Assembly (NCBI GenBank): GCA_913063285.1
Contig: CAJXXZ010000003.1
Coordinates: 2,317 to 66,316 of the forward strand
DNA: 64,000 nt
Source of the DNA: an uncultured bacterium
Lineage (GTDB): Bacteria > Pseudomonadota > Alphaproteobacteria > CAJXXZ01 > 1604HC
Reading direction: 5' to 3'
Each line of letters opens with the position of its first letter. The stretch's first letter is position 1. A program made the translations under genes and the position numbers. The notes under the pieces were generated by a model, which made no database searches, was not told the DNA's origin, and saw only the letters and a program-made list of their open reading frames with translations. Shown piece by piece: positions 15,867 to 38,211 of the stretch.

Positions 15867-17753
15867 CTATGTTAATTTAAGCATCCAAACACGATCATCA
15901 GATCTTCTTTTTTGTATAGCATTCGGGTTCTTCTGTATATTCCTATTGAATGTTTTGGGTTTATTTTGAGATTGATTATCGCCTCTTCTTTTAAGTTTAG
16001 TAGGTGCTGCTTCTGCTGCTTTTGCTGCTTCTGCAGCTTGTGCAGCTCTTTCTTTTGCAGCTTCTGCTGCTTTTGCTGCTTCTGCTGCTTTTGCTGCTTC
16101 ACCTCCTGCTCCTTGAGTTGATCTGCCTCCTGCTGTATTTGGCAAACTCTCTTGTGCTGATATATAACCTTCTTCTGATCTTTTTTTGACTTGAGATCGA
16201 TCACCCCTTGATGGTGAATGATCTACTCTAGAAGCTCTTAAATCTCCTTTTGCTGAATCTTGTACTTTAGATGGTGTGCCTGCTGGACTAGCAGCTCTTG
16301 GTTCTGGACCAGTAGCTCCTAGTACTACTTTTGCTTCGGTTTCTGCATCTTTTTCTCCTGTCGCTTCACCTTGTGCTGAAATTGGACTATTATCTCCTTC
16401 TAGAGTTTGTGGAACATTGCTATCTTTTAACTTTTTCAATAAATTCTTTAACTCCTCTGAAATATGATTCAATATTGAAGAATCTGGATTTTCTCTCTTC
16501 AATCTATTTACTTCTTCATTTATAGACATTATTTTTTTTATACTACCTTGTCTCTCAAGCTCGTGAGTAGAATAATAATGTTCATATAGACTTAAAATAC
16601 TTGTACGTAAACACCTAATACTATTCTCAAATAATGATTCTTCAATATGGTTCTTAAGAATCTTTTCCAACTCAATCATTAAGGTGATCATATTAATATG
16701 CTGTTCTGATAATTTTTGATAATCATTTTCATATGCATTGAAAATTTCTTGATTAATATTATTTAGTCTTTGTATGATGACTTCTAATTTACTCTCATTA
16801 TCACCTTCTATAATCTTAAAATACTGAATAAAATTTTGTGGATATTGTTCTAAATAATATTTAAAAATTTTCAGTATATTTTCTACAATTTTTTTATCAT
16901 CCTTTAGTTCTTTCAAATCACTATGCAATATAATATAAGATAAAATTTTCTCTTTTGATAATTCCTTTTCTGCAAAATGATCACTAGCGGACCTTATAAT
17001 TTTCGTTAAAACAGTATTTTCTATATTGGCAATATCTAATAGTTGTTTAACACCAGATAATATAGCTTTTCTTTTACCTAAATCTTTGAAATTTGGATCT
17101 TTATAAAAATTTTCCATTACTTGTTTGATTTCACCAAAATGCTGTATTGATTCTTCTTTTTTCTTTTGTGATTGTGAAGAATCTTTCGTAATTGCTCCTT
17201 TGCCTTTATAATTTTGAAAATTAATACCAGTGGCATCATAGAGATATTGCTCAACTTCTGTATCAGATAAGTCTTCAATGATAAATTTAGCTATAAATTC
17301 ATCTGATTCTAATTCTTCGCTTGTTAATTTGTACTGAACTGATGTTTGAGAATTTGCAATATACTTTGCTAGCTCACTTGTTTGATCAACAAGAATAGGC
17401 ACAATACTTTCTATGAAAAGAACTTCACCATTGTCATCATATTGAGCTAATGGATTTGCTATTTGAGTATCTAAAACAACTTCTATAAAACTGGCATCTT
17501 TTATTGTATCTGATGATGTTTCTTTTAGTAATGTAGAAAGATTTGCTTTATCTTTATCTTCAAGAGTTACCAACATACGAATATGATCTTGATAAGACTC
17601 AGTAAATCCAATAGAACCATGCCTACTCATAGATTTCATCATCAAAGCATCTTCATAAGCTAATGCATCTTGATTATAAAATGTAAAAGAAGGTTGATTA
17701 TTAGCCCTTGTATGAGGACTAAACAATATAAGTACACAGAGTATAATTGACAT
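15867..17753 (-). CDS. secreted paralog-family member A: signal peptide, conserved N-domain, helical region, disordered Ala/Glu/Lys/Pro/Gly-rich tail
   Basis: Signal peptide MSIILCVLILFSPHTRA. The N-domain aligns with members B-G (GSIGFTE..IRMLVTLEDKDKANL..ASFIEVVL..YDDNGEVLF..VEQYLYDATG). The tail contains AAKAAEAAKAAEAAKERAAQAAEAAKAAEAA. Confidence 0.8.
   Translation of the reverse strand: MSIILCVLILFSPHTRANNQPSFTFYNQDALAYEDALMMKSMSRHGSIGFTESYQDHIRMLVTLEDKDKANLSTLLKETSSDTIKDASFIEVVLDTQIANPLAQYDDNGEVLFIESIVPILVDQTSELAKYIANSQTSVQYKLTSEELESDEFIAKFIIEDLSDTEVEQYLYDATGINFQNYKGKGAITKDSSQSQKKKEESIQHFGEIKQVMENFYKDPNFKDLGKRKAILSGVKQLLDIANIENTVLTKIIRSASDHFAEKELSKEKILSYIILHSDLKELKDDKKIVENILKIFKYYLEQYPQNFIQYFKIIEGDNESKLEVIIQRLNNINQEIFNAYENDYQKLSEQHINMITLMIELEKILKNHIEESLFENSIRCLRTSILSLYEHYYSTHELERQGSIKKIMSINEEVNRLKRENPDSSILNHISEELKNLLKKLKDSNVPQTLEGDNSPISAQGEATGEKDAETEAKVVLGATGPEPRAASPAGTPSKVQDSAKGDLRASRVDHSPSRGDRSQVKKRSEEGYISAQESLPNTAGGRSTQGAGGEAAKAAEAAKAAEAAKERAAQAAEAAKAAEAAPTKLKRRGDNQSQNKPKTFNRNIQKNPNAIQKRRSDDRVWMLKLT
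16005..16100. repeat. 18-bp tandem repeat (gcttctgctgcttttgct) encoding (AAEAAK)n on the minus strand
   Basis: About 5 units are visible directly. This is a locally GC-enriched patch, and it spawns several spurious overlapping ORFs in other frames. Confidence 0.85.
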
Positions 17754-17762
17754 ATATTTTAT

Positions 17763-17795
17763 ATTATACTTAATTTATCTTAAAAATCAATTGAT
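17763..17795 (-). promoter_or_regulatory. candidate promoter of member A: TTGATT-N16-TATAAT, ATG 9 nt downstream; overlaps the palindrome ATCAATTGAT
   Basis: The minus strand reads ATCAATTGATTTTTAAGATAAATTAAGTATAATATAAAATATATG. There is no SD between the -10 hexamer and the ATG. Confidence 0.4.
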
Positions 17796-17816: not shown

Positions 17817-18419
17817 TTAAGATATCTTATCAGCGTTGAAATTTCCAAGTTTCTCATCTATTTCTAATTCACGCTCTTCGTTTAATACCTCAAATTCCAA
17901 ATTCTCATTTGCTTTTTCTGCTTTTCTCAACTCCCATTCTTTAGCGAAGTTTACAAGTTGACTTATTTTTTTCTGCATATAATTATCAAGCTTCATATAA
18001 TCTTCTTTATATTTCATAATTTTATCAATAATTTTATTTTTTAATTCATTACAAATTTCTTTAATCTGATCTGCAGTATATGAATTTAAAGTTCTTTTTC
18101 TATTTATAAACATTTTTCCTAATTTAAAAACATTATGTTTTATGATTTGTTTATCTTGCCTACTCATTTGTTGAAACATCTTCATAGAAATTCCCACATT
18201 ATTTAATTTACGCTTAAGTCTTCTAAGTTTATCTCTATTACGATTTCTTAGATTTTTTAGATTTTTTAAAGGATTTGAATAGTTATTTTTAAAAGAATTT
18301 TCATTTGATACTACAGAAATTTTTTTTACAGAAGGTTGATTATTTTCTAGTGCATCTTCAGCATTTAATATATAGTTAGAAAAACATAATAAAAAGTAAT
18401 ATTTGATGCTGCTTTTCAA
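17817..18419 (-). CDS. small secreted basic (Lys/Asn/Arg-rich) hypothetical protein
   Basis: A canonical SD (AAGGAGGT, 4 nt spacer) precedes a TTG start. Signal peptide MKSSIKYYFLLCFSNYILNA. It shares a 15-nt identity (agaaggttgattatt, encoding NNQPS) with the 5' end of member A. Confidence 0.65.
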   Translation of the reverse strand: MKSSIKYYFLLCFSNYILNAEDALENNQPSVKKISVVSNENSFKNNYSNPLKNLKNLRNRNRDKLRRLKRKLNNVGISMKMFQQMSRQDKQIIKHNVFKLGKMFINRKRTLNSYTADQIKEICNELKNKIIDKIMKYKEDYMKLDNYMQKKISQLVNFAKEWELRKAEKANENLEFEVLNEERELEIDEKLGNFNADKIS

Positions 18420-18615: not shown

Positions 18616-21324
18616 ATGAAAACTATCGTTGTGCTTATATTATTATATTTTCAAGTTAATGCACAAGATTTTAATAGAGAATCATGTAGATCAAAATATG
18701 GCATTCAGTTAACAGGATATACTTCACAAGCAATGCTAGAAAATTTACCAAAACATTTTTCTCAGATAGAGACCGCCACTGAGATTTTTAGTGGCTTTTG
18801 TGGCGTTGTTGAAGTCGATAATGATTACTATACACAATTTCTAAAGATTGATAAAATACCAGGTTCAAATCAGTTGCTTTTAGACTTACTAAGATCAGAA
18901 ACTAAATATTTAAAAATTAAAGCACCTAAAGTATATTTTCAGGGTTCAGAGCCGACGAAATGCATATTAAACTTATTAATGAAAAATGAAGATATTGATG
19001 CAAATGAAATCAAAACCATAAAAGGAAGCAGTAGTACAGATAAAGTGGAAGTTGATATAAGTAAATTTGAATACCTAATTAGGTGTAAGTGTCAAAAACA
19101 AACATGTCAAGAAGTAATTAATGATATGGAATTTATACAATGTTTAACTACTATATTTCAAGAACAGATTAGAGAGAAAGAAGATGAAATAGATAGTCAA
19201 GCAGCGGAAGCGGCTCGTCAAGAAGCTCAACGTAAAGCAGATCAGGCTAAAGCAGCTCAAGATCAAGCGGAAGCAGCGCGTAAAGAGGCTCAACGTAAAG
19301 CAGATCAGTTACAAACTAAACTTCAAGAGGTTCAAACAACTAAAGATCAAGCGGAATTGGCTCATAAAGCAGTAGAAACTCAACTTCAAGCAAAAGTTCA
19401 AGAGGTGGAAGATCAAGCGGAAGCGGCTCGTCAAGAAGCTCAACATAAAGCAGATCAGTTACAAACTGAACTTAAAGCTGTTCAAGATAAAGTAGCTCAA
19501 ACGGAAGCAACTAAAGCACAACTTCAAGCGAAAGTTGAAGAGGCTCAACATAATGCAGCCCAGGCTAAAGCAGCTCAAGCTCAAGCGGAAGAAGATCGTA
19601 AAGTAGCGGAAGAAGGGCGTAAAGAGGCTGAAGCTCAAGCAGCTCAGTTACAAACTGAACTTAAAAATGCTAAAACAGCTGAAGCTAAAGCTGAAGTAGC
19701 TCATCAAGAAGCAGAAACTGAACTTAAATCTCGAATTAAATTGGCGGAAGCGGCTAAAGCTAAAGAGGAATTAGCTTGTCAAGAAGCTCAACATCAAGCA
19801 GATCACTTACAAAATGAACTTAAAGCTATTCAAGATCAAGCGGAAGCGAATCTTCAAGAAGCTCAACGTAATGTAGCTCAAGCAAATGAAGCAAAACGTA
19901 AAGCAGAAGAAGATCTACAAGATACTCAACGTCAAGCAGCTCAAGCTATGGAAGCAGCTCATCAAGAGACTGAAAGCTTAAGAACTGCACTTCAAGCGTC
20001 TGAATACAAATTAGCTCAACTTCGAACAAAATTCGAAGTCGCGGAAGAATCTCTTAAATCAACAGAAGCTAAACTTCAAGATCAAATTAAATTGGCGGAA
20101 GCGAATCGTCACAAGGCTCATGTTCAAGCAGCTCAAGCGAATAAAGCAAAACATAAAGAGGAAGAATCTCGTAAAAACTCTGAAGCTCAGGCTGAAGAGT
20201 TAAAAGTTCAACTTCAAAAGGCTAAATATAAAGCAGCTCAGTTACAAACTGAACTTCAAAAGGCTGAATATAAAGCAGATCAATTGCAAAATGAACTTGA
20301 AAAGGCTCAAACAGCTAAAGCAAAACTTCAAGCAAAAGTTGAAGCGGCTAAAGCTCAAGCGGAAGCGAATCTTCAAGAGGCTCAAGGTACAATAAATCAG
20401 TTAAAAACTAAACTTCAAAAGGCTCAAGATCAAGTAGCTCAGGCTAATGAAGCAAAACTGAAAGTAGAAGCCGAAGCAAAACGTAAAGAGGAAGAGGTTT
20501 ATAAAGATGCTAAAGACTTAAAAAATAAACTTCAGGCTAAAACTCAAGAGGCTCAAGATCAAACAGCTAATGCTGAAGACTTAAAAGCTCAACTTAAAAA
20601 TGCTCAAACAGCTAAAGATCAAGCGGAATTGGCTCATAAAGCAGTAGAAACTCAACTTCAAGCTAAAACTCAAGAGGCTGAAGCGGCTAAAGCTCAAGCG
20701 GAAGCGAATCTTCAAGAAGCTAAAGCTCAAGCGGAAGCGAATCTTCAAGATGCTCAAGCTCAAGCAGAAGCAGCTCGTAAAGAGGCTCACGATAAAGAAA
20801 ATCAGTTACAAACTGAACTTGAAAAGGCTCAAACAGCTAAAGCTCAAGCGGAAGCTGAACTTCAAAAGATAATTATAGATATTGATGAATTAATTAGAAT
20901 GGAATATTTGTGTCAAAATGCTGAGAATAAATTGAACATGGCTCATCAAGAGTCTAATGATTTAAGAGCTGATCTTCAAGCAAAAGCTCGAGAAGAGGAA
21001 GCAGCTCGTAAAGCAGCAGAAGAGGCTCAAGCTCAAGTGGAAGCGGCTCGTAAAGAGGCTCACGATAAAGAAAATCAGTTACAAACTGAACTTGAAAAGG
21101 CTCAAGATCAAGCATCTAAAGCAGAAGCAGCTCATAAAGAACTAGAAAATCAACTTCAAATAAAAGTTCGAGAAGTTGAAGAATTAAAATCTCAACTTCA
21201 AGCGAAAATTCAAGGATTAAAAAATGAACTTCAAGCATCTCAAACATCTGAAAAGAATAGCAATACATGGGATTGGCTTGGAGTATTACTTGGATGCTTT
21301 AGTCAACAGAGAAAGTCATCTTAA
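18616..21324 (+). CDS. large secreted/surface coiled-coil protein: signal peptide, about 190-aa Cys-containing globular head, about 690 aa of A/Q/E/K heptad-like repeats, short hydrophobic C-terminal tail
   Basis: Signal peptide MKTIVVLILLYFQVNA. The head has 7 Cys. The rod consists of degenerate repeats such as QAEAARKEAQRKADQLQTELK. The tail is NTWDWLGVLLGCFSQQRKSS. Exact internal DNA repeats of about 50-60 nt occur (19340/20612 and 20773/21046). Confidence 0.85.
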   Translation: MKTIVVLILLYFQVNAQDFNRESCRSKYGIQLTGYTSQAMLENLPKHFSQIETATEIFSGFCGVVEVDNDYYTQFLKIDKIPGSNQLLLDLLRSETKYLKIKAPKVYFQGSEPTKCILNLLMKNEDIDANEIKTIKGSSSTDKVEVDISKFEYLIRCKCQKQTCQEVINDMEFIQCLTTIFQEQIREKEDEIDSQAAEAARQEAQRKADQAKAAQDQAEAARKEAQRKADQLQTKLQEVQTTKDQAELAHKAVETQLQAKVQEVEDQAEAARQEAQHKADQLQTELKAVQDKVAQTEATKAQLQAKVEEAQHNAAQAKAAQAQAEEDRKVAEEGRKEAEAQAAQLQTELKNAKTAEAKAEVAHQEAETELKSRIKLAEAAKAKEELACQEAQHQADHLQNELKAIQDQAEANLQEAQRNVAQANEAKRKAEEDLQDTQRQAAQAMEAAHQETESLRTALQASEYKLAQLRTKFEVAEESLKSTEAKLQDQIKLAEANRHKAHVQAAQANKAKHKEEESRKNSEAQAEELKVQLQKAKYKAAQLQTELQKAEYKADQLQNELEKAQTAKAKLQAKVEAAKAQAEANLQEAQGTINQLKTKLQKAQDQVAQANEAKLKVEAEAKRKEEEVYKDAKDLKNKLQAKTQEAQDQTANAEDLKAQLKNAQTAKDQAELAHKAVETQLQAKTQEAEAAKAQAEANLQEAKAQAEANLQDAQAQAEAARKEAHDKENQLQTELEKAQTAKAQAEAELQKIIIDIDELIRMEYLCQNAENKLNMAHQESNDLRADLQAKAREEEAARKAAEEAQAQVEAARKEAHDKENQLQTELEKAQDQASKAEAAHKELENQLQIKVREVEELKSQLQAKIQGLKNELQASQTSEKNSNTWDWLGVLLGCFSQQRKSS

Positions 21325-21406
21325 AGCTGAATCTTAAAATAAAACATAATGAAGTATAAATTAGAACGCTAAATCATCTCATATAATCATTAAAAAAATA
21401 TTAATA

Positions 21407-21435
21407 TTGACATTTAAGTTATAATTTAACAAAAT
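21407..21435 (+). promoter_or_regulatory. candidate promoter of member B: TTGACA-N17-CAAAAT, ATG 6 nt downstream
   Basis: ATATTGACATTTAAGTTATAATTTAACAAAATACCAATATG has the same geometry as the other family members. The -10 hexamer is weak. Confidence 0.3.
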
Positions 21436-21441
21436 ACCAAT

Positions 21442-22860
21442 ATGAAAGTATATAATTTAATATTTTGCATGATACTATCACAGCATGCTTCTCCAAACTC
21501 ACTAACACTTCATAAGTCATATACACCTACTGAAAAAGATTTAGTAACTATACAACATCTTCAGTCTGCTGGTAGACATTGTTTTGCTCAGACTAATGAA
21601 TCTGGAGATTTTCGTATTTTTATGCTAATTGATGAAGATAGAAAAAATCGTTTGTTTCAATTATTAAATATAGATAAACAGCGTATTCAAGATACTAAAT
21701 TTATAGAATTTAGTATTGATTCTGAAGATGTTAAAAAATTGGCTAAATTTGATAAAGATGGTAATATTTTTCACATTGATAATCCTTTTTTCGATCACAA
21801 TTCAGACTTCCTAAGAAGTTTAGAAATTTTTGATGCAAAAACCAGTTCTGAGAAAGAGAGAATAGCAAAAATAGTAACTGCAAATTTTATTAAAAATTCT
21901 AGTTCTGAAAAGACTTGCGAATATATTAAAACGATTAATGGTCATAGTTTAGATGATTTTTATCAAAAAGATGTTCAAGATGATACGAATAGAACTTTCG
22001 ACATTGTAATCGTTGAAAATGATAAACCACATATAGATATATTTGATTCAAGCTATGAAACAGCTATGCAATTTACTAAAGAAAAAGAATTAAGTGATGA
22101 AAGTAGTATAGAATTCATGATGAAAAATATAAGAACTCTTCAACAAATGTATGATATATCTCATGAAAATTTAGAGATAGTTTTAAGAAAAATTATAGAT
22201 TCAGAGTGGGTAACAAAACAATTAGATTTTTTTGAAATTCAAACAAAAATATTACAAAATTCTGAGATGACTGATTTAATTGGCCCTTTGAAAGATATAC
22301 AGTCACTTTATCTTGCTGCTCTTCACAGTAATTATCACATTGAATGTATTAAAAAAAATACTAAGAAAATCTATGATTCTGATTATACTGATGATGAATT
22401 TGATTTAGCTATTGCTGACATACAAAAGACTTTAGATGAAATAACTAACTTTACTAAAGTTATTTTGGAGAGATATCAAAAACTTCATATACGAAATATG
22501 GTAAATTATGAAAATCTAATTACTTTTGATAGAATTTCTAAAAATATAAATAATACTATGAATAATATTTATGAGTTGCAAAAAGATTATTTGCACAAAC
22601 TTGATACAAGAGTTATAGATGCTGAGTTTGCTGAGCAGCATGCTAATCTTAAATCTGAAGCTATTCGTAAACTTATTATGTACGCAGATCTTAGATGTAA
22701 AGTATATCTATCTTATAATGATAATAGTAAATACTTACGTATTTTATCTGTAACAGAAGATCAAGAAAGTGAAGAAAGAGCTACAGTTGCTTATAATGAA
22801 TATGTAGACGTTTTGAGAGATCTTCATAAAGCTAAAGCCTATACTGCAACAATAAAATAA
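21442..22860 (+). CDS. secreted paralog-family member B (shortest member, no repeat tail)
   Basis: Signal peptide MKVYNLIFCMILSQHASP. N-domain blocks: GRHCFAQT..FRIFMLIDEDRKNRLFQLLNID..TKFIEFSI..FDKDGNIFH..CEYIKTING. Second module: NIRTLQQMYDISHENLEIVLRKIIDSEW. Confidence 0.8.
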   Translation: MKVYNLIFCMILSQHASPNSLTLHKSYTPTEKDLVTIQHLQSAGRHCFAQTNESGDFRIFMLIDEDRKNRLFQLLNIDKQRIQDTKFIEFSIDSEDVKKLAKFDKDGNIFHIDNPFFDHNSDFLRSLEIFDAKTSSEKERIAKIVTANFIKNSSSEKTCEYIKTINGHSLDDFYQKDVQDDTNRTFDIVIVENDKPHIDIFDSSYETAMQFTKEKELSDESSIEFMMKNIRTLQQMYDISHENLEIVLRKIIDSEWVTKQLDFFEIQTKILQNSEMTDLIGPLKDIQSLYLAALHSNYHIECIKKNTKKIYDSDYTDDEFDLAIADIQKTLDEITNFTKVILERYQKLHIRNMVNYENLITFDRISKNINNTMNNIYELQKDYLHKLDTRVIDAEFAEQHANLKSEAIRKLIMYADLRCKVYLSYNDNSKYLRILSVTEDQESEERATVAYNEYVDVLRDLHKAKAYTATIK

Positions 22861-22973
22861 TTAAGCTTTTTTATACATTTATTACTTTAAAAAATATATC
22901 ATATTACAACTTTATTTTTTAAACTAAAATATAAATTAACTAACTTTTTAAACATATGCTCTAAAATGGAAAT

Positions 22974-25181
22974 ATGATATTCAAAAAAATAATATTTTTC
23001 TTCGTTTTAATATTATATGCAGATCAAACTGAAATAGCTACCAAAGGTAGTTCAGTCACATTGTATGATCAAGGAACTTTATCTACCAATGTGCAAGCGC
23101 TTCTTAAACTGCACGAATACAATCAAAAACTTGGTATTGCTTATACTGATGATTTTAATCAGGTTCATTTGATAAGAAGATTAGATGATGATTTAAGATC
23201 AAAACTTACAAAATCTTTAGGTCTTGATCAATCAAAAACAGATGAAGCTCAATTTATAAAAGTTGCTGTTGATCATGACTTTGCAAGCAAGTTTAATCAA
23301 TTTGATGACCAAGGTAAATTTGTGTCTATGACAGACTTTATATCTGAGGCTTTAAAGGATGATGCTAAATCACAAGAAATGCGTGATAATTTTAATAAAC
23401 ATAGTCTTGAAAGTTCAAATCCTGAACATAGAGAAAAATTAATATCTAGCACTATTATTGATAGCCTTTCTTCAAACGAGCTTAATAAATATATTCAAAC
23501 AGGGATGAGTAGTAACTCTTTATATTCTGGTAGATCTATTTTGGGCACTTCAATGGATGGAAACACATTACCACTTTATGATATATCAGTTTTGAACATT
23601 TCAATGGATATGAATCAATTACCAGCTTTTCAACAAATAACTGCATTACTAGGAGAAGTATATAACCAGGAAAATTTAACTAAGATTTTTGATGAAAAAT
23701 TGGCAGGAAAACTCTCAAATGATATTATTAGGAAAGACTTGATGTTGGAATTTATAAAATACACTCAAAACTCAGAGGCTAGATTAGGTGATGATACACC
23801 AGATTCTGGCTCAGATGTTAGTACAGCACAAGATCCTACTGATCGATTGGTTACGCAATCTGTTTTAGGAGGAGCTTATTCAAGAGTAGCACAACCTGAG
23901 TCGTCTAAAATAGATATCGCAGGAGCTGTTTTAGCAGATGCTATTAAAAAAGCAGTACAAGGATTTAAGTCTAGTGGTGCTGGTGATACTTCTGCACAAA
24001 CTGCTGATGGTGCTCCTGCTCTTGATACTGACGTTACTGGTAAAGGTGTAGCTGGTGCTGGCAATGATCCTGCTAGAGCTGTTGAAACTCCTGATAGTGG
24101 TACCGATGTAGCTTCCGCTGATGCTTCTACAACTAGCCCTACTCAAGTTGCCTTTTCTCAAGATAGTCCTGATGATAAACAAACTCTTACTGTTGCTGAT
24201 GGTTCTGTTGAAACTTTTCCTGCTGATAATAGTGGTGTCAATCAACAAGATGGTTCTGATGCTGCACAAACTTCTCCTGGTAGTGTAGATGTTGCTCCTA
24301 CTGAAACTAGTCCTGCTAAACAAACTGGTGCTGATGGTGCTCCTGCTAGAGCTATTGAAACTCCTGATAGTGGTACCGATGTAGCTTCCGCTGATGCTTC
24401 TACAACTAGCTCTGCTCAAGTTGTCTTTTCTCAAGATGGTTCTGATGATAAACAAACTCTTACTGGTGCTGGTGGTTCTGTTGAAACTTTTCCTGCTGAT
24501 AATAGTGGTGTCAATCAACAAGATGGTTCTGCTGTTAATAGTACTATCAATCAACAAGCTGATTCTGCTGGTGATGCTGAAACTCCTGATAGTGGTACCG
24601 ATGTAGCTTCCGCTGATGCTCTTGCAACTAGCTCTACTCAAGTTGCCTCTTCTCAAGATGCTGCTCAAAAATCAGATGCTAGCTTAGATTTTTCTTTCTC
24701 TGATACTGACTCTGATGCTGATAAGGGAAGATATGATGTTGCAAAAGCTACTATAGAAAATATTATGCAACATGGTTTAGACAGTTTTGATGATAGAGAA
24801 AATATTGCTTTCTCTGATGCTGGCTCAGATGCTGGCTCAGCTGACGATACACCGAAATCTAATAAGGGTAACACATCATTTGCTATTCATTATAATTTAC
24901 ATAATCAAGGTTACAGTGATGATGAAAAAGCTGTTTTAACAGCTGATGAACAAACTGCTTCTACTGGTGCTTCTGGTGATGGTAGCGGTATAGCTCCTGA
25001 AACTGGACCTGGTGCACAACTTACTGATCAAATAGCTAATCATTCAATTGAAGAGATTTATGATCATCAAGACTGGACAAATAATCCTACTAATGTGTTG
25101 GCTGAAAGTGCTGCACATGTTCTTAAACCACCGTATATTATTTATTTTTTACAGGATGATAGCCCTGTCGATACAGTATAA
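22974..25181 (+). CDS. secreted paralog-family member C with an acidic Ser/Thr/Asp/Ala-rich tandem-repeat region
   Basis: Signal peptide MIFKKIIFFFVLILYA. N-domain blocks: LGIAYTDD..VHLIRRLDDDLRSKLTKSLGLD..AQFIKVAV..FDDQGKFV..LNKYIQTGM. Repeats have the form ETPDSGTDVASADASTTS.TQV.FSQD..DDKQTLT...GSVETFPADNSGVNQQDGS. Confidence 0.85.
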   Translation: MIFKKIIFFFVLILYADQTEIATKGSSVTLYDQGTLSTNVQALLKLHEYNQKLGIAYTDDFNQVHLIRRLDDDLRSKLTKSLGLDQSKTDEAQFIKVAVDHDFASKFNQFDDQGKFVSMTDFISEALKDDAKSQEMRDNFNKHSLESSNPEHREKLISSTIIDSLSSNELNKYIQTGMSSNSLYSGRSILGTSMDGNTLPLYDISVLNISMDMNQLPAFQQITALLGEVYNQENLTKIFDEKLAGKLSNDIIRKDLMLEFIKYTQNSEARLGDDTPDSGSDVSTAQDPTDRLVTQSVLGGAYSRVAQPESSKIDIAGAVLADAIKKAVQGFKSSGAGDTSAQTADGAPALDTDVTGKGVAGAGNDPARAVETPDSGTDVASADASTTSPTQVAFSQDSPDDKQTLTVADGSVETFPADNSGVNQQDGSDAAQTSPGSVDVAPTETSPAKQTGADGAPARAIETPDSGTDVASADASTTSSAQVVFSQDGSDDKQTLTGAGGSVETFPADNSGVNQQDGSAVNSTINQQADSAGDAETPDSGTDVASADALATSSTQVASSQDAAQKSDASLDFSFSDTDSDADKGRYDVAKATIENIMQHGLDSFDDRENIAFSDAGSDAGSADDTPKSNKGNTSFAIHYNLHNQGYSDDEKAVLTADEQTASTGASGDGSGIAPETGPGAQLTDQIANHSIEEIYDHQDWTNNPTNVLAESAAHVLKPPYIIYFLQDDSPVDTV
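24084..24665 (+). repeat. in-frame tandem repeats in member C: unit 1 of 273 bp (24084-24356), unit 2 of 222 bp (24357-24578), unit 3 partial
   Basis: The string gaaactcctgatagtggtaccgatgtagcttccgctgatgc recurs at 24084, 24357 and 24579. The units are near-identical at the DNA level. Confidence 0.9.
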
Positions 25182-30200: not shown

Positions 30201-30210
30201 ATTTTTATAC

Positions 30211-32112
30211 ATGATCATACATAAAATATTATTTTATATAATTTTAATATTTTATACTAACTACAATAACGCAAAATTCTCACTTAAATTTCATAAATTT
30301 AGCACACCTACAGATTCAATTTTGATGCGTAGTATGAAGATGAGGAATGGTATTGGTTTTGCTTATCTTGATCAACTTGGTAAAGTTCGTGTATTTATAA
30401 AAATTAATGATGATGACAAAAATGATCTTGCAAAATTCTTAAATATAGATGTATCACTTCTTAAAGAAAGAAAATTTGCAGAGCTGATTATGGATGTCGC
30501 ACTAGCAGAAAATTTTGTAAAATTGAATGAAAAAGGTCATGTTGCTTATATGGAGAACTTTATGTCTGATCTCATCAGCGAAAAAAGTAAATTACGAATG
30601 AGTATAGATATAAATAGTGTAAAAACTAATTTGAATAAGCATGAAAATGTTAAGAAAGATGTTGTGACATCATATATGATGAATTCACTTGATGATATCA
30701 AGCTTCAAAAATATCTTGAAAATATCACAGGTTCTGATACAGTAAGTATTTATGATAAAGGACCTATTTTTCATGCTAAGCATATTTTACAAATTACAAT
30801 GAATGCTGATGATTTACATGATGTAGAGAAAATTAGTAAATTTATTGAAGAAAGTGACATAAATGATAATGATACTATTGAAGCTATTGTTAAAAATAGG
30901 CCTAAAAGTGAAAGTATTGATCTTTATTTAAAAAATATCGAACTTTTTTTTGAGCAATATGAAGGTCTGCCAAGTGAGGTTTTAGAAAAAATTATGAGTC
31001 AAGATTGGGCTAAAAGGCCTTTGACTGCTGATTATATTCATCAAGAAATTTCTTTAAATCACGATTCATTTAATGATTTAATTTATTATGCAAAAGATAT
31101 AAAAGCTATAGCATTGATTAATAAGAAAGCTGCTGAAGAGATTAGAAAAAGTCTTGAGCAAATCTCTAATCAAGTTGCTAATTCTGAGACAAGAAATAAA
31201 ATATATAAAAGCATGCTTACTTTGCAAAAAATAGGCAATTTCACTGAAGCTCTTTTTGAAAAAGCTAAAAAATCTTATGAAAAGGCCAGTTCAGATCAGG
31301 AAAAAACTAATTTTTATCTAGTTATGCAAAATATTTTTCAAACTCTTGAGGAAGTATATAAAGCTTATGAAATTTTTGTTCAGTTAAATTCAGATTATTT
31401 TGATTCAGAAGTAGATATGCAAAAGCATCATATTAATTTTAATTTAAAGCGTGCTTTAGATATTATACAAGCTACTAAAATTTACAGAGAATTTATTACG
31501 AAGTATATAACTTATTATGATACTTTAGTAGCTTTAGGTATAGATACAGATAAAATAGATAGAGAAAAATTAAATAGTGTTGCTCAAGATCGTCTAAATA
31601 CAGCTATTTCAAAGAGTGTTGATATACTTGCTAAGTTGAATGAGCGAGATGTCAATATTCAAGATGTTATTGTTCCTGTTGAGATGCTTTATAAATATAT
31701 TACAGATATTAAAAATAGTATTAAAAAAGTTTATGGTCTACTCGATGATATAAATAAGAATTTTGTAAATACAGATTCTGATGAAGTTAAAAAATCTCTA
31801 AATGAAGTTAAAAGATCTCTAGAAGATATTAAATATCTTTTATCAAGTTATACATCACAATGTATATTTTATACTAATGCAGTTGATTTTACTGAATTGT
31901 TTAAAAAGAATTCTTCTAATAAATCTTATCAGAATATTAAATCGCTTTGTGAAATTATTAAAAATATTCTTGATATTGATAAGCAGAAGGCTGAAGAAGA
32001 TTATAACCAATGTCAGAAGAGATATAGTAAATATAGGACAAAGTATTATAAATCTAAGAAAGTAACCTTTTCTGATTATGATGAAGTCTTTTCCATACAA
32101 AAAAATATTTAA
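30211..32112 (+). CDS. secreted paralog-family member E
   Basis: I chose the ATG at 30211 (MIIHKILFYIILIFYTNYNNA); the track's start is a TTG at 30190. N-domain blocks: GIGFAY..VRVFIKINDDDKNDLAKFLNID..RKFAELIM..LNEKGHVAY..LQKYLENITG. Second module: NIELFFEQYEGLPSEVLEKIMSQDW. Confidence 0.85.
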   Translation: MIIHKILFYIILIFYTNYNNAKFSLKFHKFSTPTDSILMRSMKMRNGIGFAYLDQLGKVRVFIKINDDDKNDLAKFLNIDVSLLKERKFAELIMDVALAENFVKLNEKGHVAYMENFMSDLISEKSKLRMSIDINSVKTNLNKHENVKKDVVTSYMMNSLDDIKLQKYLENITGSDTVSIYDKGPIFHAKHILQITMNADDLHDVEKISKFIEESDINDNDTIEAIVKNRPKSESIDLYLKNIELFFEQYEGLPSEVLEKIMSQDWAKRPLTADYIHQEISLNHDSFNDLIYYAKDIKAIALINKKAAEEIRKSLEQISNQVANSETRNKIYKSMLTLQKIGNFTEALFEKAKKSYEKASSDQEKTNFYLVMQNIFQTLEEVYKAYEIFVQLNSDYFDSEVDMQKHHINFNLKRALDIIQATKIYREFITKYITYYDTLVALGIDTDKIDREKLNSVAQDRLNTAISKSVDILAKLNERDVNIQDVIVPVEMLYKYITDIKNSIKKVYGLLDDINKNFVNTDSDEVKKSLNEVKRSLEDIKYLLSSYTSQCIFYTNAVDFTELFKKNSSNKSYQNIKSLCEIIKNILDIDKQKAEEDYNQCQKRYSKYRTKYYKSKKVTFSDYDEVFSIQKNI

Positions 32113-32332
32113 TTTTTTACAGATAAATTTTATATTTTAGAAACACTGACTCGACTTTTTTAAAGCCTACTGCTTTATACATGACATCAAAATTTAAAGA
32201 ATAACATGAAATATCTTCTTCAATATTAATTTATAGCCTGTTTAAGCTAAATGGTGGTTGAACTACCTTTCTTTACTGTTATCACTACAGCTAATTTTAA
32301 AGTTATTTTTAATCTATATATCAAAAAATCAA

Positions 32333-32360
32333 TTGATATTTAAAAAATATGTCATATAAT
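32333..32360 (+). promoter_or_regulatory. candidate promoter of member F: TTGATA-N16-TATAAT, ATG 10 nt downstream; overlaps the palindrome ATCAATTGAT
   Basis: TCAAAAAATCAATTGATATTTAAAAAATATGTCATATAATATATTTATATATG. The first 17 nt are identical to the member G upstream region. Confidence 0.4.
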
Positions 32361-32370
32361 ATATTTATAT

Positions 32371-34539
32371 ATGATACAAAAAATAATACTGTGTATGATT
32401 CTTACCTCATATGCACGTGTTACTGAACATACCTTGTATAAAAAAAATGCAGGGAATTCCACAGACAGATTTGTAATGCAAACTTTAAAAAGTAGAGGTC
32501 ATGCTGGATTTGCTCATGTCAAAGATGATGATCAAGTAGATGTTCTTATGACAATACAAGATGATGATCAAGATGTTCTTGAGAGAGCTCTGAGATTTAG
32601 TAAAGAAGAGCTTAATGAAAGCGAATTTATAAAATTTACTCTAAATCGTGAGTTAGCAAAGAAATTTATTAAAACAGATAATAATGGAAGAAAAATTACT
32701 GGTTTTAAAAATCTAATGGATGCTCTTAGAAACAAAGATAGTGATTTAATGAATATTTTACAAAGCTCTCCTAAATCTATAAGAAGTTTAGATCATATTC
32801 AAGATCAGAGTGAAAAAGAACAAAAAATTATGGAAGCAGGTTTTATTGATACATTTGATGCACGTGAACTTCAGAGACATATGAAAAATTTAACTAACTT
32901 TGATTTTGATACATATACAGACGGAGATATTCCAATATCAGATTTTTTTGCAAAATCGATTGATTTGAAGCGAATTGATAAAAATTATGAGTAGGTTCGA
33001 CAAAAAGCATTGCAGTTGAATGAAGGAAACAGAAAAATATTTATTAATAATAGAAAACCGCTTATGATTATGTGGAAATATTTAGACAAAAATGAGATAG
33101 ATGCAGTTTTGACTAAAGCAAGAGATATGGGTATAGATAAAGAGCAAATAAAATTTTCTGATATTGTTTCTGCTATGTTTAGTATTAGTCAAAATCAAGA
33201 ATCACCTCATGAGGAAACAGAAATACCAGCAATACCAGTAACACCAGCAGCTTCTCGAGGTGAAGTGCCAACTACAAGATCAGCAGAAGAAGGTGTAGGT
33301 ACTGATCTTATGAGTAAATTTTATAGCAGGATTCAACAATCTGTAGAGAATTTTGCATCTATTCTCTCTGAACTTTCACGCTCTAGTCTTGACATAATAT
33401 CTAAAGCTCTACAATCTTCACATTTCATAAATATAAAACAGTTTATTAATGCATTAAAATGTATAGATGTGATAAAAAGTCTGGAACAAAATGTTATAAC
33501 TGCTAGAGAAGATACAGATGAAGAATCTGAAGAAATTACACAGAATAATGATAATTTTGAAAATAAATTAAAAAAAGTATTTTTAGATTCAAAAGAGAAT
33601 ATACAAAATTTCGTACAATCGCTTATAAAGTATGAAGCATTAAGTTTTGAAGAGTTTAATATAATTATTGATTTCTTATTATATTTTTCTCATTATATAA
33701 TAGAAGATGAAACAATTCAAGATGAAAGCTTTGTAGAGCGAATTCATATAGATATCATATCGGCATTGTGTAATACAGAGTTCTTTCAGGGTAAAGAATT
33801 GAGCAAATTGAATGTTGATGAGAAAAGTAAATTAACTGGTATGATCAAATCATATCTAGATAAATTGACACAAATGTTGATGCACAAATATTCATGTGAA
33901 TGTAATGATATTTATGATGGATGGGAGCTTCGAACGCATAGCAATGATCCGAAAGTTCATTTTATTATACATTTAGAAAATATTAAGAAGATTATATATA
34001 CTCTAATACATCCTCATTTTCTCATAAACAATTTCATTCCAAAAATAGAAAAATTGAAGAATGATTATACATCACTGCAAAATGTACAAGGTATGTTAGA
34101 AAAGGACAAACAACAAAATACTGAATTAGAAGAAAAATTCACAGATATTGCAAATATGGTAATATCTTATCTAGAACGCATTAGTGGTGTACAAGTATCT
34201 ACTCATGCTTCAGATGCAAGACCTACTACTCCTGATTTAGTTGCAAGTGCTGTTATTCCTCCAAGATCTGCTGGACCATATCTAGAAACTACCCGTTATC
34301 CAGTTGCAGGAATTGGTGTTGGTTCTCCAGCTGCAAGACCTACTACTCCTGATTTAGTTGCAAGTGCTGTTATTCCTCCAAGATCTGCTGGACCATATCT
34401 AGAAACTGCCCGTTATCCAGTTGCAGGAATTGGTGTTGGTTCTCCAGTTGCAAGACCTGCTGATTCTGCTTCAGCTGCAAGACCTAGCCCTACTTCAGCT
34501 GAAAGACCTGGTCTCCTGCACAAGTTTCAAGAAATCTAG
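32371..34539 (+). pseudogene. secreted paralog-family member F, one reading frame interrupted by a single in-frame TAG at 32995-32997 (listed as ORFs 32371..32994 and 33010..34539)
   Basis: Both ORFs are in the same frame (coordinates equal 1 mod 3) and are separated only by TAG plus 4 sense codons. The first ORF carries the signal peptide and N-domain (HAGFAH..VDVLMTIQDDDQDVLERALRF..SEFIKFTL..TDNNGRKI..LQRHMKNLTN). The second carries the variable part and a Pro-rich repeat tail. Confidence 0.7.
34216..34500 (+). repeat. 117-bp (39-aa) in-frame tandem repeat, 2 copies plus a partial third: ARPTTPDLVASAVIPPRSAGPYLETTRYPVAGIGVGSPA
   Basis: Units start at 34216 and 34333 and are almost identical. 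A degenerate third begins near 34450 (ARPADSASAARPSPTSAERPG). Confidence 0.9.
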
Positions 34540-35492
34540 CAGCAGGAGGATTAGTCTATGATCAAGTTGAAAGAGGCCCTATACATGCCAGATTGATAAG
34601 AGGTGAGCAGGAAAGATATTTAGCTAGTGTATTATCTTCAGATTCATAATTCGACATTGTCGTATAAGATTAAGAAGATAGAGTAGATGTTCTTTAGCAA
34701 GTGTCTAAATTTTATTTTTAACAATATTATGTGGAAGGATAAGAAGGAAATAGCAATGAAAATCTATTCAGATATAACTCAGCATTATAACTTAGCATTA
34801 AATCTTTATTTGAAATTTATCAATATAAGTCATATTCCTATAATAGACTCTCTATACTTTATAACTTAGTAAATATTAATTATTTAATTAAGTCTGATTA
34901 AGCTCAATATTTTATAGCAGCAACACAAGAAAATTTTAGAGAATTGATTTTTTTACACTGCCTTAAGGTTGATTAAAGCATAAATGAAAAACTTAAAGAT
35001 ATACTATTAATATAATTTATGATAATTTCATTCAAAAATATGTAGATACGCTTAAAACTCTTAATGATATATGAATATGATATTTTTCTATTTTTTCAGC
35101 AAATTGGAAATTTTATTTCAAATCTTTATTTGATAATATAAAATTAAACTAATTCTATCTATAAGTCATTTTTCATATATATATATTATTCTTATAATCA
35201 ATAATAAAAAACTTAGATTATTTATTAAATAATATAAATTATATCTTATCTTATTAAAAAAATAGACCTAATTTATAAAATATAGAAGCTCAGAACATAA
35301 AGTTGACTGAGATATAGATTATAAGAATTTATATCATAAAGGTTTAATGCCTATATTTTCTAAAGATTTAGATCAAGCGTCTGATTATTTAGATACAGAT
35401 GATGATAATTTTGACTTATATCACTATATTCAGCTTGATTTTTAACAGTTATCATGATTATTTAAAATTTAAATATAAATTCAAAAAATCAA

Positions 35493-35520
35493 TTGATTTT
35501 TAAAAAAAAATCTATACAAT
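35493..35520 (+). promoter_or_regulatory. candidate promoter of member G: TTGATT-N16-TACAAT, ATG 6 nt downstream; overlaps the palindrome ATCAATTGAT
   Basis: TCAAAAAATCAATTGATTTTTAAAAAAAAATCTATACAATATAAATATG. Transcription starting the usual 6-8 nt after the -10 hexamer would begin at or next to the ATG. Confidence 0.4.
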
Positions 35521-35526
35521 ATAAAT

Positions 35527-38211
35527 ATGTCAATACATAAAATCATATTTTGTATAATCTTTATCTCTTATGCTGATGAAGGTTTAAATAGCAGTCCTTA
35601 TGCTCAATTCTATAAAAATCAAGAATTAGGTGCCATAGACAGTTTTTTGATAAATGCTGCAGATCAAAAAGAACTGGGAGGTATTGCTAAATCTGGTGAC
35701 ACTGATGTTCGTGTATTAATGAGGCTTAAAGAGAATGAAAAAAAGGCTCTTTCTAAGTCACTACCAATATCATTAGAACAGTTAAAAGATATTGATACGA
35801 TGGCACTCACCTTAAGCCGTGAAAAAGCAGGTCGATTTGCTAAATTTGATGAAGAAGGTAAAATTATGCATCTAAACAATCTTATGCCTTATCTTCTTAA
35901 TGAAGATAGTGAGTTAGCACAATCTATTTCAGTTAAAGATTCAGAAGAGTCAAGAGAGGATAGATTAATAAATGCAGCCTTAACTAATCAGCATCTTTTG
36001 GAAGAAAACCTTAGCAAATATATCAAAGAAATTTCTGGTATGAGCATGGATAGTTATTCAGGACAGGGTGTATGGATTTCTGACACAAGTAAATTAGATA
36101 CAGTATTAAAAGAAGTAATGCCAAAAGAAAAAGATGTTCAGAAAATGAAAGAAGTGATAAAAAATAAGAATTTGAATGTTAATCAAACTCCATTATTTGC
36201 AAATACTGTACAAAGCATATTACAAATAAATCCTGATGTAGATGTAGATACTTTATTAGATTTTCTGGCAGAAAATGTAGATACTTTATTGACAGATAAT
36301 ATTTCTAGAGAGAGATTATATCACGATTTACTTTCACAAGCTGAAATATCAAGCTCAGAAAATATAAAGTATACTTTTGCTACAGCGCTTATTCTAGAAG
36401 TTATAAAAACAGATAGAGAAGAAGATCAATATTTGAGATCAATTTTTAATCAAATTAACAATCCTCATCCTGATGATCTTGAATTCTTGAGATTCTTTGT
36501 AGATTGCTATGCATCAGTATATAAGCCTCAAGATAATGTATTATTATCAGCGCTTAAGATTATTGCTTCTAGTCATAATGTTGAAGAAGTAGCATTAAGT
36601 GATGCAATCAAAGATTTTATAAAAAATAAAGATAGATTCAATTACGAAGAAATGATGGGATTGGCAAAAAATTTCAAAATTCTCTTAGAAGTGGATGGTA
36701 TTACAGAAGATCTTTTATTAAATGACATTGAAGACTCTATCGATCTATTTAAAGAATATGAAGGTAAAATATCAGCATATACTAATATGATTCCTGTATT
36801 AAGATCATTAGAAGGAAAACAAGATATTATTGATAGTATTACCTTTAATATTCAAGAAATTGTTCAAAAAGCTGTAGAGGATACACAAGATCATAGATGT
36901 ATACAATTATTTGATGTAATTACTTCAGGTAAATATAATTATGCAGAATCGTCACAATATATAAAGGAGATTAATCTCATTAATGATCTATTGAGTGATG
37001 AAATGTTAAAAGGATTCAATTATCTTATAAGTTTTTATGATAATAAACAAGTAGATGAATCACATGCTGCGCCTCAAGCAAACGGATGGTTTCAAAGATT
37101 TGACATGTCTAGTATAAGATCTATTTTCAGTAGGAGAGCTCCTGTAGCAGAAGAATTTGTAGGAGCAGAAGTAGAAGCAGATCAAGGAGAAGCACCTGCA
37201 GGAGTAGGAGACCTAGATGATGTTCCCGATAAATCTCAAACAAAAGGAAGATTACAAGAATGGAGTAGATGGTTGTTCGGAGATAGATTGTCTAGAGAAT
37301 CATCAGATCAAGTAGCAGATGCATCTGTAGGAGAAGGAGTAGATAAAGATGACAGTAAATCAGATTCAAAGGCTCAAGCAAAAAAATCAAATTTTAGATT
37401 ACCTATTAAAAAAATTGGTGGTATTATGGGTGGTGCTCTTGGTACCTATCTCGCTTATGAAGCCTATCCTAATGATATAACTTCGACTACACCTGGTACA
37501 CTTCATAATAAGACTAAACCAGAAGCTAGCGGATTTCCACTTGATTCATCATCTTTTGGTCAACAAAGAGCTCAAGGTATAAACGCAAATGGCATATCTC
37601 AACCTTTAACACCACAAGAAGTTATAGAAGAATCAGCTAGAGCATTAGAAGTACTACAAAGACGAGGTTTAGTTGATTTTTCTACTGAAACTAAAACAGC
37701 AGATTTTACACCAGCTTTAACACCAGAAAAAATACTAGAAGTATTAAAAAGAGTTGTGCCAGAAGAAGGTATAGATACTACTCCTATAAAAGGAAATTCC
37801 ACTAATGGAACTAAAACAGCAGGTAACATATATGGATTAATACCATCTGGTTTAAGCCCAGAAGAACAAGAAGCAGCAACCAAAAAACTAAATGACCCAG
37901 TCATTCAAGCAGTAATAGATCAAGAAGCAGCTAGAGCAGCAAGTCTACAAAGTTTTACACCAGCAGATAAAAAGTATGAATTAACACCATATGGTTTTAC
38001 ACCAGCAGAACACAGAGCAATAGCAAAAAGACAAAAAGAAGAATATACAGATAAAGACGTGGAACTACAAAGAGTAGAAGCTATAACTGCAGAAGCAGAA
38101 GATAGAACAGAAAAAGCTATGGAGACAGCAGAAGATAGAGCAGCAAAAGACAAAGCCATAGTAGAAAAATCTATAGCTGCATCAGCTAGATTGCAGCAGT
38201 TAGAGCATTAG
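35527..38211 (+). CDS. secreted paralog-family member G: N-domain, helical region, acidic linker, Gly-zipper hydrophobic segment, C-terminal (F/L)TP-repeat and Ala/Glu-rich region
   Basis: Signal peptide MSIHKIIFCIIFISYA. N-domain blocks: LGGIAKSG..VRVLMRLKENEKKALSKSL..FAKFDEEGKIMH..LSKYIKEISG. Hydrophobic segment IGGIMGGALGTYLAYEAY (about 37425-37475). Repeats: LTPQEVIEE, FTPALTPEKILE, LSPEEQEAA, FTPADKKYELTPYGFTPAEHRA. Confidence 0.85.
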   Translation: MSIHKIIFCIIFISYADEGLNSSPYAQFYKNQELGAIDSFLINAADQKELGGIAKSGDTDVRVLMRLKENEKKALSKSLPISLEQLKDIDTMALTLSREKAGRFAKFDEEGKIMHLNNLMPYLLNEDSELAQSISVKDSEESREDRLINAALTNQHLLEENLSKYIKEISGMSMDSYSGQGVWISDTSKLDTVLKEVMPKEKDVQKMKEVIKNKNLNVNQTPLFANTVQSILQINPDVDVDTLLDFLAENVDTLLTDNISRERLYHDLLSQAEISSSENIKYTFATALILEVIKTDREEDQYLRSIFNQINNPHPDDLEFLRFFVDCYASVYKPQDNVLLSALKIIASSHNVEEVALSDAIKDFIKNKDRFNYEEMMGLAKNFKILLEVDGITEDLLLNDIEDSIDLFKEYEGKISAYTNMIPVLRSLEGKQDIIDSITFNIQEIVQKAVEDTQDHRCIQLFDVITSGKYNYAESSQYIKEINLINDLLSDEMLKGFNYLISFYDNKQVDESHAAPQANGWFQRFDMSSIRSIFSRRAPVAEEFVGAEVEADQGEAPAGVGDLDDVPDKSQTKGRLQEWSRWLFGDRLSRESSDQVADASVGEGVDKDDSKSDSKAQAKKSNFRLPIKKIGGIMGGALGTYLAYEAYPNDITSTTPGTLHNKTKPEASGFPLDSSSFGQQRAQGINANGISQPLTPQEVIEESARALEVLQRRGLVDFSTETKTADFTPALTPEKILEVLKRVVPEEGIDTTPIKGNSTNGTKTAGNIYGLIPSGLSPEEQEAATKKLNDPVIQAVIDQEAARAASLQSFTPADKKYELTPYGFTPAEHRAIAKRQKEEYTDKDVELQRVEAITAEAEDRTEKAMETAEDRAAKDKAIVEKSIAASARLQQLEH

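Follow-up and report, generated by a model that had tools for sequence, protein, structure and literature searches.

The locus examined here raises the question of what an uncultured, very AT-rich alphaproteobacterium does with seven neighbouring genes whose products begin alike and end in entirely different ways. The genes, designated A to G, form an island of 22 kb at positions 15,867–38,211 of a 64,000-nucleotide stretch of contig CAJXXZ010000003.1 (assembly GCA_913063285.1, positions 2,317–66,316 of the forward strand), and this whole stretch is referred to below as the window. An earlier note, made from the letters of the DNA and its open reading frames (ORFs), had read the island as an antigenically diversifying surface or effector family that expanded by local duplication. 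Our analysis favours, with moderate confidence, a somewhat different answer: a true paralogous family, restricted to its deep-branching lineage and expanded in tandem, whose modular members are exported by the Sec pathway and share an N-terminal domain (N-domain) that would serve as a non-enzymatic handle, with C-termini that would form member-specific interaction surfaces.

The homology of the seven members was established on the N-domain. BLASTP of the first ~190 aa linked all pairs of proteins, with E values of 1e-26 to 6e-5 in a 12-sequence database. An alignment of residues ~18–190 was then built from the seven members (n = 7) after removal of the signal peptides, and hidden Markov models (HMMs) were prepared with one member left out at a time. 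Each omitted member was regained with 77–118 bits (E values of 6e-23 to 1.5e-35), while the next-best segment of the six-frame translation scored ~8 bits. Thus, the significance check named in the earlier note gave a clear result: the profile found exactly seven members in the six-frame translation of the window and no eighth, and tblastn of all members against the window revealed no further remnants in the long spacers. The N-domain is ~170 aa long, with a pairwise identity between paralogs of 20–36%. A and G resemble each other for ~120 aa past the N-domain as well.

The N-domain follows a start that, by inspection, resembles a signal peptide in 7/7 members, with an n-region that is short and basic (K/H-K; missing from A) and a hydrophobic core of 10–12 residues. 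Residue -1 of the predicted cleavage site is Ala in all seven, the sites reading SYA, LYA, NYA, NNA, QHA and TRA. The signal peptide is the best-conserved stretch of the proteins, with a mean pairwise identity of 39% vs 24% for the N-domain. A lipobox was found in none of the seven members, so that the lipoprotein reading was ruled out, and the other segments of the proteins fall below transmembrane hydrophobicity. These N-termini are most readily understood as cleavable Sec-type signal peptides, hence the proteins are probably exported.

Only three residues, two Leu and one Gly, are invariant in the N-domain alignment, and no conserved polar, potentially catalytic residue was found among the seven sequences; the N-domain is therefore probably non-enzymatic. 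The AlphaFold2 model of the domain, obtained from the 7-sequence alignment, had a predicted local distance difference test score (pLDDT) of 76.8 and a predicted template modelling score (pTM) of 0.74. The predicted elements run beta-alpha-beta-beta-alpha-alpha-beta, followed by further strands and helices and by two long C-terminal helices, and the same order was obtained in a separate prediction of full-length B. In our reading of this secondary structure, the first six elements appear to be ordered like a ferredoxin-like unit. A Foldseek search with the model returned best E values of 0.58 against PDB and 0.16 against BFVD, with TM scores of about 0.2. The full-length B model (pLDDT 62) matched generic helical bundles only (14-3-3; syntaxin Sso2, E about 0.1), which were not counted as evidence.

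The coordinates and strands of all seven genes agreed with those given in the earlier note. Gene A (15,867–17,753, -) encodes 628 aa, in which the signal peptide and N-domain are followed by a helical region and a basic disordered tail with AAEAAK repeats at 16,005–16,100. The product of gene B (21,442–22,860, +; 472 aa) has a second shared domain, module 2, and a bundle of long helices after the N-domain, and it ends without a disordered tail. In C (22,974–25,181, +; 735 aa), a short helical segment leads into a 460-aa acidic disordered tail with a net charge of -55. D (25,403–29,158, +; 1251 aa) is the longest member, in which a helical region, a KG-rich disordered segment (26,852–26,920), a further helical region and a further disordered region precede a C-terminal domain with module 2. 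E (30,211–32,112, +; 633 aa) carries module 2 and a long helical region. Gene F (32,371–34,539, +) had been taken for one gene; its boundaries stand, whereas the single ORF does not, since an in-frame TAG at 32,992–32,994 splits it into two ORFs of the same frame. The first part, F1, comprises the signal peptide and N-domain (207 aa), and the second, F2 (+), the helical region and a Pro-rich 117-nt repeat at 34,208–34,458 with ~2 copies in the window. Finally, G (35,527–38,211, +; 894 aa) continues from the N-domain into an acidic helical region and a low-complexity tail of 370 aa in which FTP motifs occur. Five of the seven genes are thus intact; in D, the reading frame is cut short by a frameshifting duplication at the 3' end, and in F it is divided by a nonsense codon.

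Module 2, which the earlier note had noticed as a second shared motif, was significant in D (about aa 975–1090), in a separate ORF at 29,305–30,060, in E and in B, with leave-one-out E values of 8.5e-8 to 2.6e-17. The alignment of these four sequences contains 15 invariant columns, including an N-I...Y...E...L-K-I...W core. In C and A, the best matches were sub-threshold and stood at the expected position, which is suggestive of the module in these members as well. E aligns to B over its full length, and in both proteins module 2 is followed by a bundle of 30–39-residue helices (pLDDT 70–85 in B). When full-length members and fragments were aligned together, the C-terminal fragments were misplaced, and this alignment was not used.

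The tails differ from member to member in the way that had been noted before: AAEAAK units in A, an acidic unit of ~91 aa with a 273-nt period in C (together with ~210-nt repeats at 24,052–24,756), (KG)n in D, a Pro-rich unit of 117 nt (39 aa) in F and FTP motifs in G. In A and F the tail is basic, as is the KG segment of D, and the net charge of the tails ranges from -55 to +9.

In addition to the coding sequences, the family shares its promoters. The 45 nt located 5' of each ATG could be aligned in 7/7 genes as A-TTGAY-(T)TTTAA, 16–17 nt, TAnAAT, 6–10 nt and ATG. In A (17,754–17,791, -), ATTGATTTTTAA is followed by a TATAAT that ends 9 nt from the ATG; in B (21,406–21,441, +), TTGACA and CAAAAT are separated by 17 nt, with 6 nt to the ATG; and in C (22,937–22,973, +), the promoter is degenerate, with ACTAAC, TAAAAT and 6 nt to the ATG. 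The promoter of D (25,366–25,402, +) consists of TTGATT, 16 nt, TAGAAT and 8 nt before the ATG. Those of E (30,172–30,210, +; TTGACT, 16 nt, TATAAT) and F (32,332–32,370, +; ATCAATTGATA followed by TATAAT) match the consensus at 11/12 positions, each with 10 nt to the ATG, and are the two best sigma-70 matches within 20–39.5 kb. In G (35,492–35,526, +), ATCAATTGATT is followed by TACAAT and 6 nt to the ATG. A strict composite pattern occurred five times in 64 kb, where 0.23 occurrences were expected, and all five belonged to family genes (A, D, E, F and G); the promoters of B and C are relaxed versions of it. The repeat finder picked out the promoter block independently, and the identity of the block between paralogs is 68% vs 42% in the flank further upstream.

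A Shine-Dalgarno sequence was found before none of the seven genes; it is present at the gene of a 522-aa protein and is strong at pheT, at the neighbouring X200 gene, and at rpmG and addB. Since the promoters lie 6–10 nt from the ATG and no Shine-Dalgarno sequence is present, the mRNAs are probably leaderless or nearly so. The positions of the promoters also support the ATG starts picked in the earlier note, and the longer TTG-start ORFs of D and E begin within the -35 box. The whole promoter block was kept while the proteins fell to ~25% identity; thus, each member would be a separate, probably active transcription unit.

A similar geometry was observed at two genes outside the family. The rplY promoter (5,858–5,900, -) consists of TTGAY, ~17 nt, TAATnT and 6 nt to the ATG, and the promoter at 62,242–62,280 of a 426-aa orphan ORF (60,961–62,241, -) has the same layout; both lack a Shine-Dalgarno sequence. 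On this basis, leaderless starts may be common in the genome. What seems specific to the family is the retention of the whole promoter block despite the divergence of the proteins. In A, F and G, a perfect 10-bp palindrome, ATCAATTGAT, overlaps the -35 box (17,786–17,795, 32,328–32,337 and 35,488–35,497), and these are its only exact copies in the window. The one-mismatch pattern of ATCAATTGAT was not enriched, and the palindrome is not independent of the promoter homology; it could act as the operator of a common regulator, or it could just have been inherited as part of the promoters.

One further copy of the promoter stands without a gene at 15,280–15,344 (-), where 56 nt match the G promoter at 71%. 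No family homology was detectable downstream of it with the HMM or tblastn. The copy is probably the remnant of a lost eighth member.

The ORF at 29,305–30,060, which the earlier note had regarded as an orphan C-terminal module, turned out to be a part of D. The last ~136 nt of D are duplicated in tandem at 29,005–29,280 (+), with copy 1 at 29,005–29,140 and copy 2 from 29,141 to about 29,280; the copies are 86% identical, with small indels. Because the duplicated unit is not a multiple of three, D is read out of frame in copy 2 and ends at a stop codon after RIKKI, so that its current stop codon was produced by the duplication. The 3' part of copy 2 still codes for the D-tail peptide, with two stops inside, in a frame that runs uninterrupted into the following ORF, X251 (29,260–30,060, +). 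X251 holds a second module-2 domain, formerly the C-terminus of D; the two are related with a BLASTP E value of 3e-13, X251 being 36% identical to the C-terminus of D. The family promoter, signal peptide and Shine-Dalgarno sequence are all absent from X251. When copy 2 was deleted in silico (137 or 140 nt), D and X251 fused into one open ORF of 1505–1506 codons. Thus, ancestral D ended in two tandem module-2 domains, and the module is best explained as a fragment cut from D by a frameshifting tandem duplication rather than as a silent cassette. X251 is open for 266 codons, which has a chance probability of about 5e-12 where about 9% of random codons are stops; either the split was recent, or the fragment may still be under selection.

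The integrity of the genes and the variation of the repeats were followed in three assemblies from at least two samples (accessions ERZ508546 and ERZ27241910). The TAG in F is also present in a 32.6-kb ENA contig and in a 6.4-kb contig of the second sample. TAG ends hda, era, map and rpsD, and since TAG, TAA and TGA all end housekeeping genes, the codon in F is a true stop; reassignment was ruled out by the same observation. The ENA contigs were 99.6–100% identical to the window and showed no C-terminal swaps. In a base-by-base comparison, every difference in the 32.6-kb contig fell inside repeats: an extra 117-nt unit in the F tail, one substitution in the C repeat and one 21-nt unit just past the G stop. 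Both assemblies compared with the window imply one extra unit of the F repeat. In the second sample, a 9-nt (ARA) insertion in the G tail and one F-to-S change in the helical region of G were found at ~3x coverage. The differences between assemblies are therefore almost wholly confined to the tail repeats; the comparison of repeat copy number suggested in the earlier note thus brought out polymorphism, yet assembly collapse could explain the copy-number differences.

The search for relatives of the family gave negative results throughout. A word-index profile search of 5.8 billion proteins returned F1 itself and nothing else. An exhaustive HMMER search of 1.84 billion representatives returned five proteins, all of them the window's own (C, D, E, F1 and G). 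A was missing there since its exact sequence is not in the collection (two ENA contigs overlap inside the gene), and B since the representative of its 90% cluster is a C-terminal fragment of 120 aa. No family match was obtained with Pfam, NCBIfam, PHROGs, the PDB sequence profile or plasmid tblastn, so that together with the Foldseek results the earlier statement that no known domain could be recognised has held. The profile of module 2 and the C-terminal domain gave no match among the best 8000 candidates, a weak negative in view of its low-complexity query. A scan of 185,579 species-representative genomes with the N-terminal half of D and with PheT revealed no relatives. No further family members were found in the assemblies that carry the organism; thus, the family appears confined to this island, as far as the assemblies are complete. 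What is new here is the domain family; its architectural class is a familiar one.

The genomic context is that of a native locus. The GC content at third codon positions (GC3) is 0.137–0.159 in the island genes and 0.136–0.205 in the housekeeping genes, and this equality indicates that the island is native; recent horizontal transfer was ruled out on the same basis. The ORFs and intergenic segments that were scanned gave no signal of an integrase, a transposase, a phage or a plasmid, and a phage or plasmid origin was ruled out because PHROGs and plasmid tblastn gave no match. Expansion in situ, as proposed in the earlier note, is thus borne out. The earlier note named no transposase, integrase or tRNA gene at the borders; a tRNA-Phe gene does lie 4.5 kb past G, but with rsmH between them. 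The island is bracketed by mraZ (14,152–14,622, -) and rsmH (41,013–41,861, +), which are divergent and 26 kb apart. These two genes are normally adjacent and co-oriented and lead the cell-division (dcw) cluster. After rsmH, the tRNA-Phe gene and rpmG are found instead of ftsL/ftsI.

The remaining flanking genes include an hda-like gene, smpB, mltG, rplY, era, hemW, pheT, map, addB, addA, rpsD, a PLD-family gene, tRNA genes and 5S rRNA. AddA and AddB best match alphaproteobacterial models. The nearest proteins to PheT (8,664–11,012, -) among 5.8 billion were 32–33% identical, and the nearest named ones, at 30%, belonged to an Alphaproteobacteria metagenome-assembled genome and a Wolbachia. The lineage is, judging from such comparisons, very divergent or fast-evolving, and it has no counterpart among the reference genomes. 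The Rickettsiales affiliation implied in the earlier note found no confirmation in these comparisons. The GC content of the window is 22–35%, long gene-free AT-rich spacers flank the island, the dcw cluster is fragmented, and orphan signal-peptide proteins other than the family are dense (X200, a 902-aa coiled-coil protein and the ORFs at 45,164–47,062 and 48,158–49,231). These features suggest a reduced, host-associated lifestyle.

Taken as a family of exported interaction proteins, the island could work as follows. From the near-consensus promoter of each gene, an mRNA with little or no leader would be made, and the protein would cross the inner membrane via Sec. The N-domain would then dock every member to a common partner, which could be an anchor in the envelope or a step of export across the outer membrane, and the variable C-termini would present differing binding surfaces toward the host or the environment. 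The homology, architecture, conserved promoters, native composition, decay and duplication events, repeat polymorphism and lack of relatives are observed directly, whereas export, the handle function of the N-domain and the target of the C-termini are inferred. Several points weigh against this scheme. Sec delivers proteins only to the periplasm in a diderm, and no outer-membrane export system is encoded in the 64-kb window. The damage to two of the seven genes is also consistent with ongoing loss of the family. The description as host-directed draws on an analogy with reduced AT-rich bacteria and on the nearby orphan signal-peptide proteins. In addition, calling the N-domain a new fold is provisional, since the model comes from a 7-sequence alignment and its confidence is moderate.

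The first of these points speaks for a family that stays within the envelope. Under this explanation, which we regard as possible and rather unlikely, the proteins would be structural components of the periplasm or cell envelope, with an N-domain that binds peptidoglycan or the outer membrane and remaining parts that act as spacers or scaffolds. The absence of catalytic-type conservation in the N-domain, the long helical bundles predicted and the signal-peptide coiled-coil protein that adjoins the family in the same island are all consistent with it. However, envelope housekeeping proteins are usually conserved, and this family has no homologue in 15 billion proteins; seven divergent copies, tails of opposite charge and polymorphic repeats would also be unusual for structural housekeeping.

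A more specific form of the handle idea, to which we assign a still lower probability, is that the N-domain is a new secretion or anchoring handle read by a dedicated outer-membrane partner and carries unrelated cargos to the surface or into the host. A precedent of this kind is TpsA, in which an N-terminal domain right after the signal peptide is the secretion handle of Sec-dependent, large, repeat-rich exoproteins of diderms. The likeness concerns the function proposed for the N-domain, which would be analogous. In contrast to TpsA and the Sca-like autotransporters, neither a TPS domain nor a beta-helix, C-terminal beta-barrel or TpsB-like neighbour was found in the members and neighbouring ORFs with Pfam and NCBIfam, and the N-domain is predicted to be alpha/beta rather than a beta-helix.

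The favoured reading, that of an exported family with variable interaction surfaces, also has parallels in two host-associated groups. Type 1 secretion substrates carry no N-terminal Sec signal and have their secretion signal at the C-terminus. The tandem-repeat protein effectors of Ehrlichia and other Anaplasmataceae (TRP32, TRP47, TRP75 and TRP120) are described as substrates of this kind (PMC3417381) and as lineage-specific proteins with acidic or low-complexity repeats of varying copy number and no known domains (PMC3417381, PMC8112483). The island shares with them the repeat-rich orphan tails in a reduced AT-rich alphaproteobacterium; it differs in its N-terminal signal peptides and shared folded N-domain, and there is no sequence similarity. 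In phytoplasmas, which are host-dependent bacteria with small genomes, the SVM proteins are small and multi-copy, with a best-conserved signal peptide, a varied mature part and no shared folded N-domain, and as phytoplasmas are single-membraned, Sec export suffices for secretion. The higher identity of the signal peptides and the varied mature parts of the island proteins recall this pattern; however, no Pfam family, the SVM signal included, matched the island family. The name stands for sequence-variable mosaic, and the proteins are secreted (PMC8026896).

Antigenic variation, in which surface proteins would exchange their C-termini with orphan modules as donor cassettes, was close to the interpretation of the earlier note and is now very improbable. 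A constant N-terminus joined to a variable C-terminus, one promoter-less C-terminal ORF and differing repeat copy numbers are what would be expected of such a system. However, N-domains with so low a pairwise identity mark the paralogs as old, and neither near-identical cassettes nor conversion tracts were found. According to tblastn and the repeat finder, DNA-level similarity between members is absent except for D/X251, so that no donor material is available to drive conversion, and the sole "cassette" is explained by the duplication that cut it from D. Unlike the msp2/p44 or vls cassette systems, the family has no single expression site, each member having its own promoter, and no high-identity tracts between members. 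The three nearly identical assemblies, with no C-terminal swaps, point in the same direction, and we consider this explanation largely refuted by the sequence comparisons. The diversity appears to be best explained by duplication of whole genes together with their promoters, doubling of the module-2 domain, slippage in the repeats and decay of genes, with no part played by cassette recombination.

The possibility that the island is a relic, a disused family eroding in a shrinking genome, is similarly improbable. The nonsense codon in F, the frameshift in D, the geneless promoter copy and the long gene-free AT-rich spacers would agree with it. However, five ORFs of 472–1251 codons are still open in a sequence as rich in chance stops as this one, the promoters are near consensus in all seven genes, and the fold signal of the N-domain is kept in each copy.

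The MafB polymorphic toxins of Neisseria, encoded in maf genomic islands, combine a ~25-aa signal peptide, a genus-restricted N-domain and a variable C-terminus, with several copies per island and start-less C-terminal cassettes (PMC4287609). Although the overall layout of the island family matches theirs, down to the lineage-restricted N-domain and one stand-alone C-terminal ORF, a MafB-like system of trafficking domains, toxin C-termini, immunity genes and cassettes that serves competition between bacteria is the least probable explanation that we considered: DUF1020 (PF06255; Pfam scan, E ≤ 1) and toxin domains (Pfam, NCBIfam) were not found, the C-termini are helical bundles or disordered repeats, the gaps from B to F measure 114–259 nt and hold no immunity-sized ORF, the variable regions span hundreds of residues and start right after the N-domain without a demarcation motif, and the copies are anciently diverged and not recombining, the stand-alone ORF having come from the truncation of D. 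The resemblance is thus one of layout only. By its sequence, the family belongs to none of the MafB, TRP, SVM and TpsA groups.

Two genes that stand among the family are not members of it. The 902-aa protein encoded at 18,616–21,324 (+) has a signal peptide and a Cys-containing head of ~170 aa, followed by A/Q/E/K coiled-coil repeats over ~700 aa and by a C-terminus that is short and hydrophobic. Its head is unrelated to the family N-domain (hhalign probability 0.1%), and the protein gave only weak SMC-like coiled-coil noise. X200 (17,817–18,419, -) encodes a K/N-rich protein of 200 aa, the start of which resembles a signal peptide, and is preceded by a good Shine-Dalgarno sequence. Comparison of the N-domain profile by hhalign with the orphans that begin at 18,616, 45,164 and 48,158 indicated no relation.

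Further orphan ORFs were observed elsewhere in the window. Those at 45,164–47,062 (+), 48,158–49,231 (+), 60,961–62,241 (-) and 11,234–12,802 (+) had no Pfam or NCBIfam match, and three of the four have a signal-peptide-like start. The last of them encodes the 522-aa protein, which has a cleavage site similar to that of the family (IHA before D) and a C-terminal half that is rich in Gly and aromatic residues and resembles an outer-membrane barrel. A basic protein of 199 aa with RFEGEGRFEKASGNRFKSE-type repeats is encoded at 47,347–47,946 (+); its last ~30 residues, FFINNDFTKKV.EPCKVEELSDNM.WYK, occur a second time 2.3 kb downstream, in a short separate ORF (50,204–50,356, +) just upstream of map.

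The 2.8 kb between G and rsmH (38,212–41,012) contain no ORF of more than ~80 codons and gave no Rfam or Pfam match; this segment may consist of decayed genes. A 21-nt tandem repeat, the copy number of which differs between assemblies, extends from the stop codon of G (38,201–38,268), and a 27-nt repeat is located at 40,206–40,270. The repair genes addB and addA (51,979–56,188, +) have ORFs that overlap by 26 nt. Of the alphaproteobacterial AddB model, only the C-terminal part is matched by AddB (621 aa), and AddA has 789 aa vs the 1138 positions of its model; the pair may form a shortened repair nuclease. The tRNA-Leu(taa) and tRNA-Arg(acg) genes lie 2 nt apart at 58,395–58,554. No 23S rRNA was detectable within the 1 kb by which the window extends past the 5S rRNA gene (62,842–62,955, -).

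Orphan secreted families are expected in organisms of this kind, and the result is hypothesis-generating. The seven proteins would be the foremost candidates for surface or host-interaction functions in an uncultured lineage with a PheT at most 33% identical to anything known. The locus also illustrates how such a family evolves: a promoter was copied with its gene, a C-terminal domain was doubled, a gene was cut by a duplication of 136 nt, and repeats vary between samples. The N-domain defines a new and well-delimited sequence family, for which no structural match has been found so far, and provides a handle for finding its partner, which could reveal how the organism moves Sec-exported proteins to where they act.

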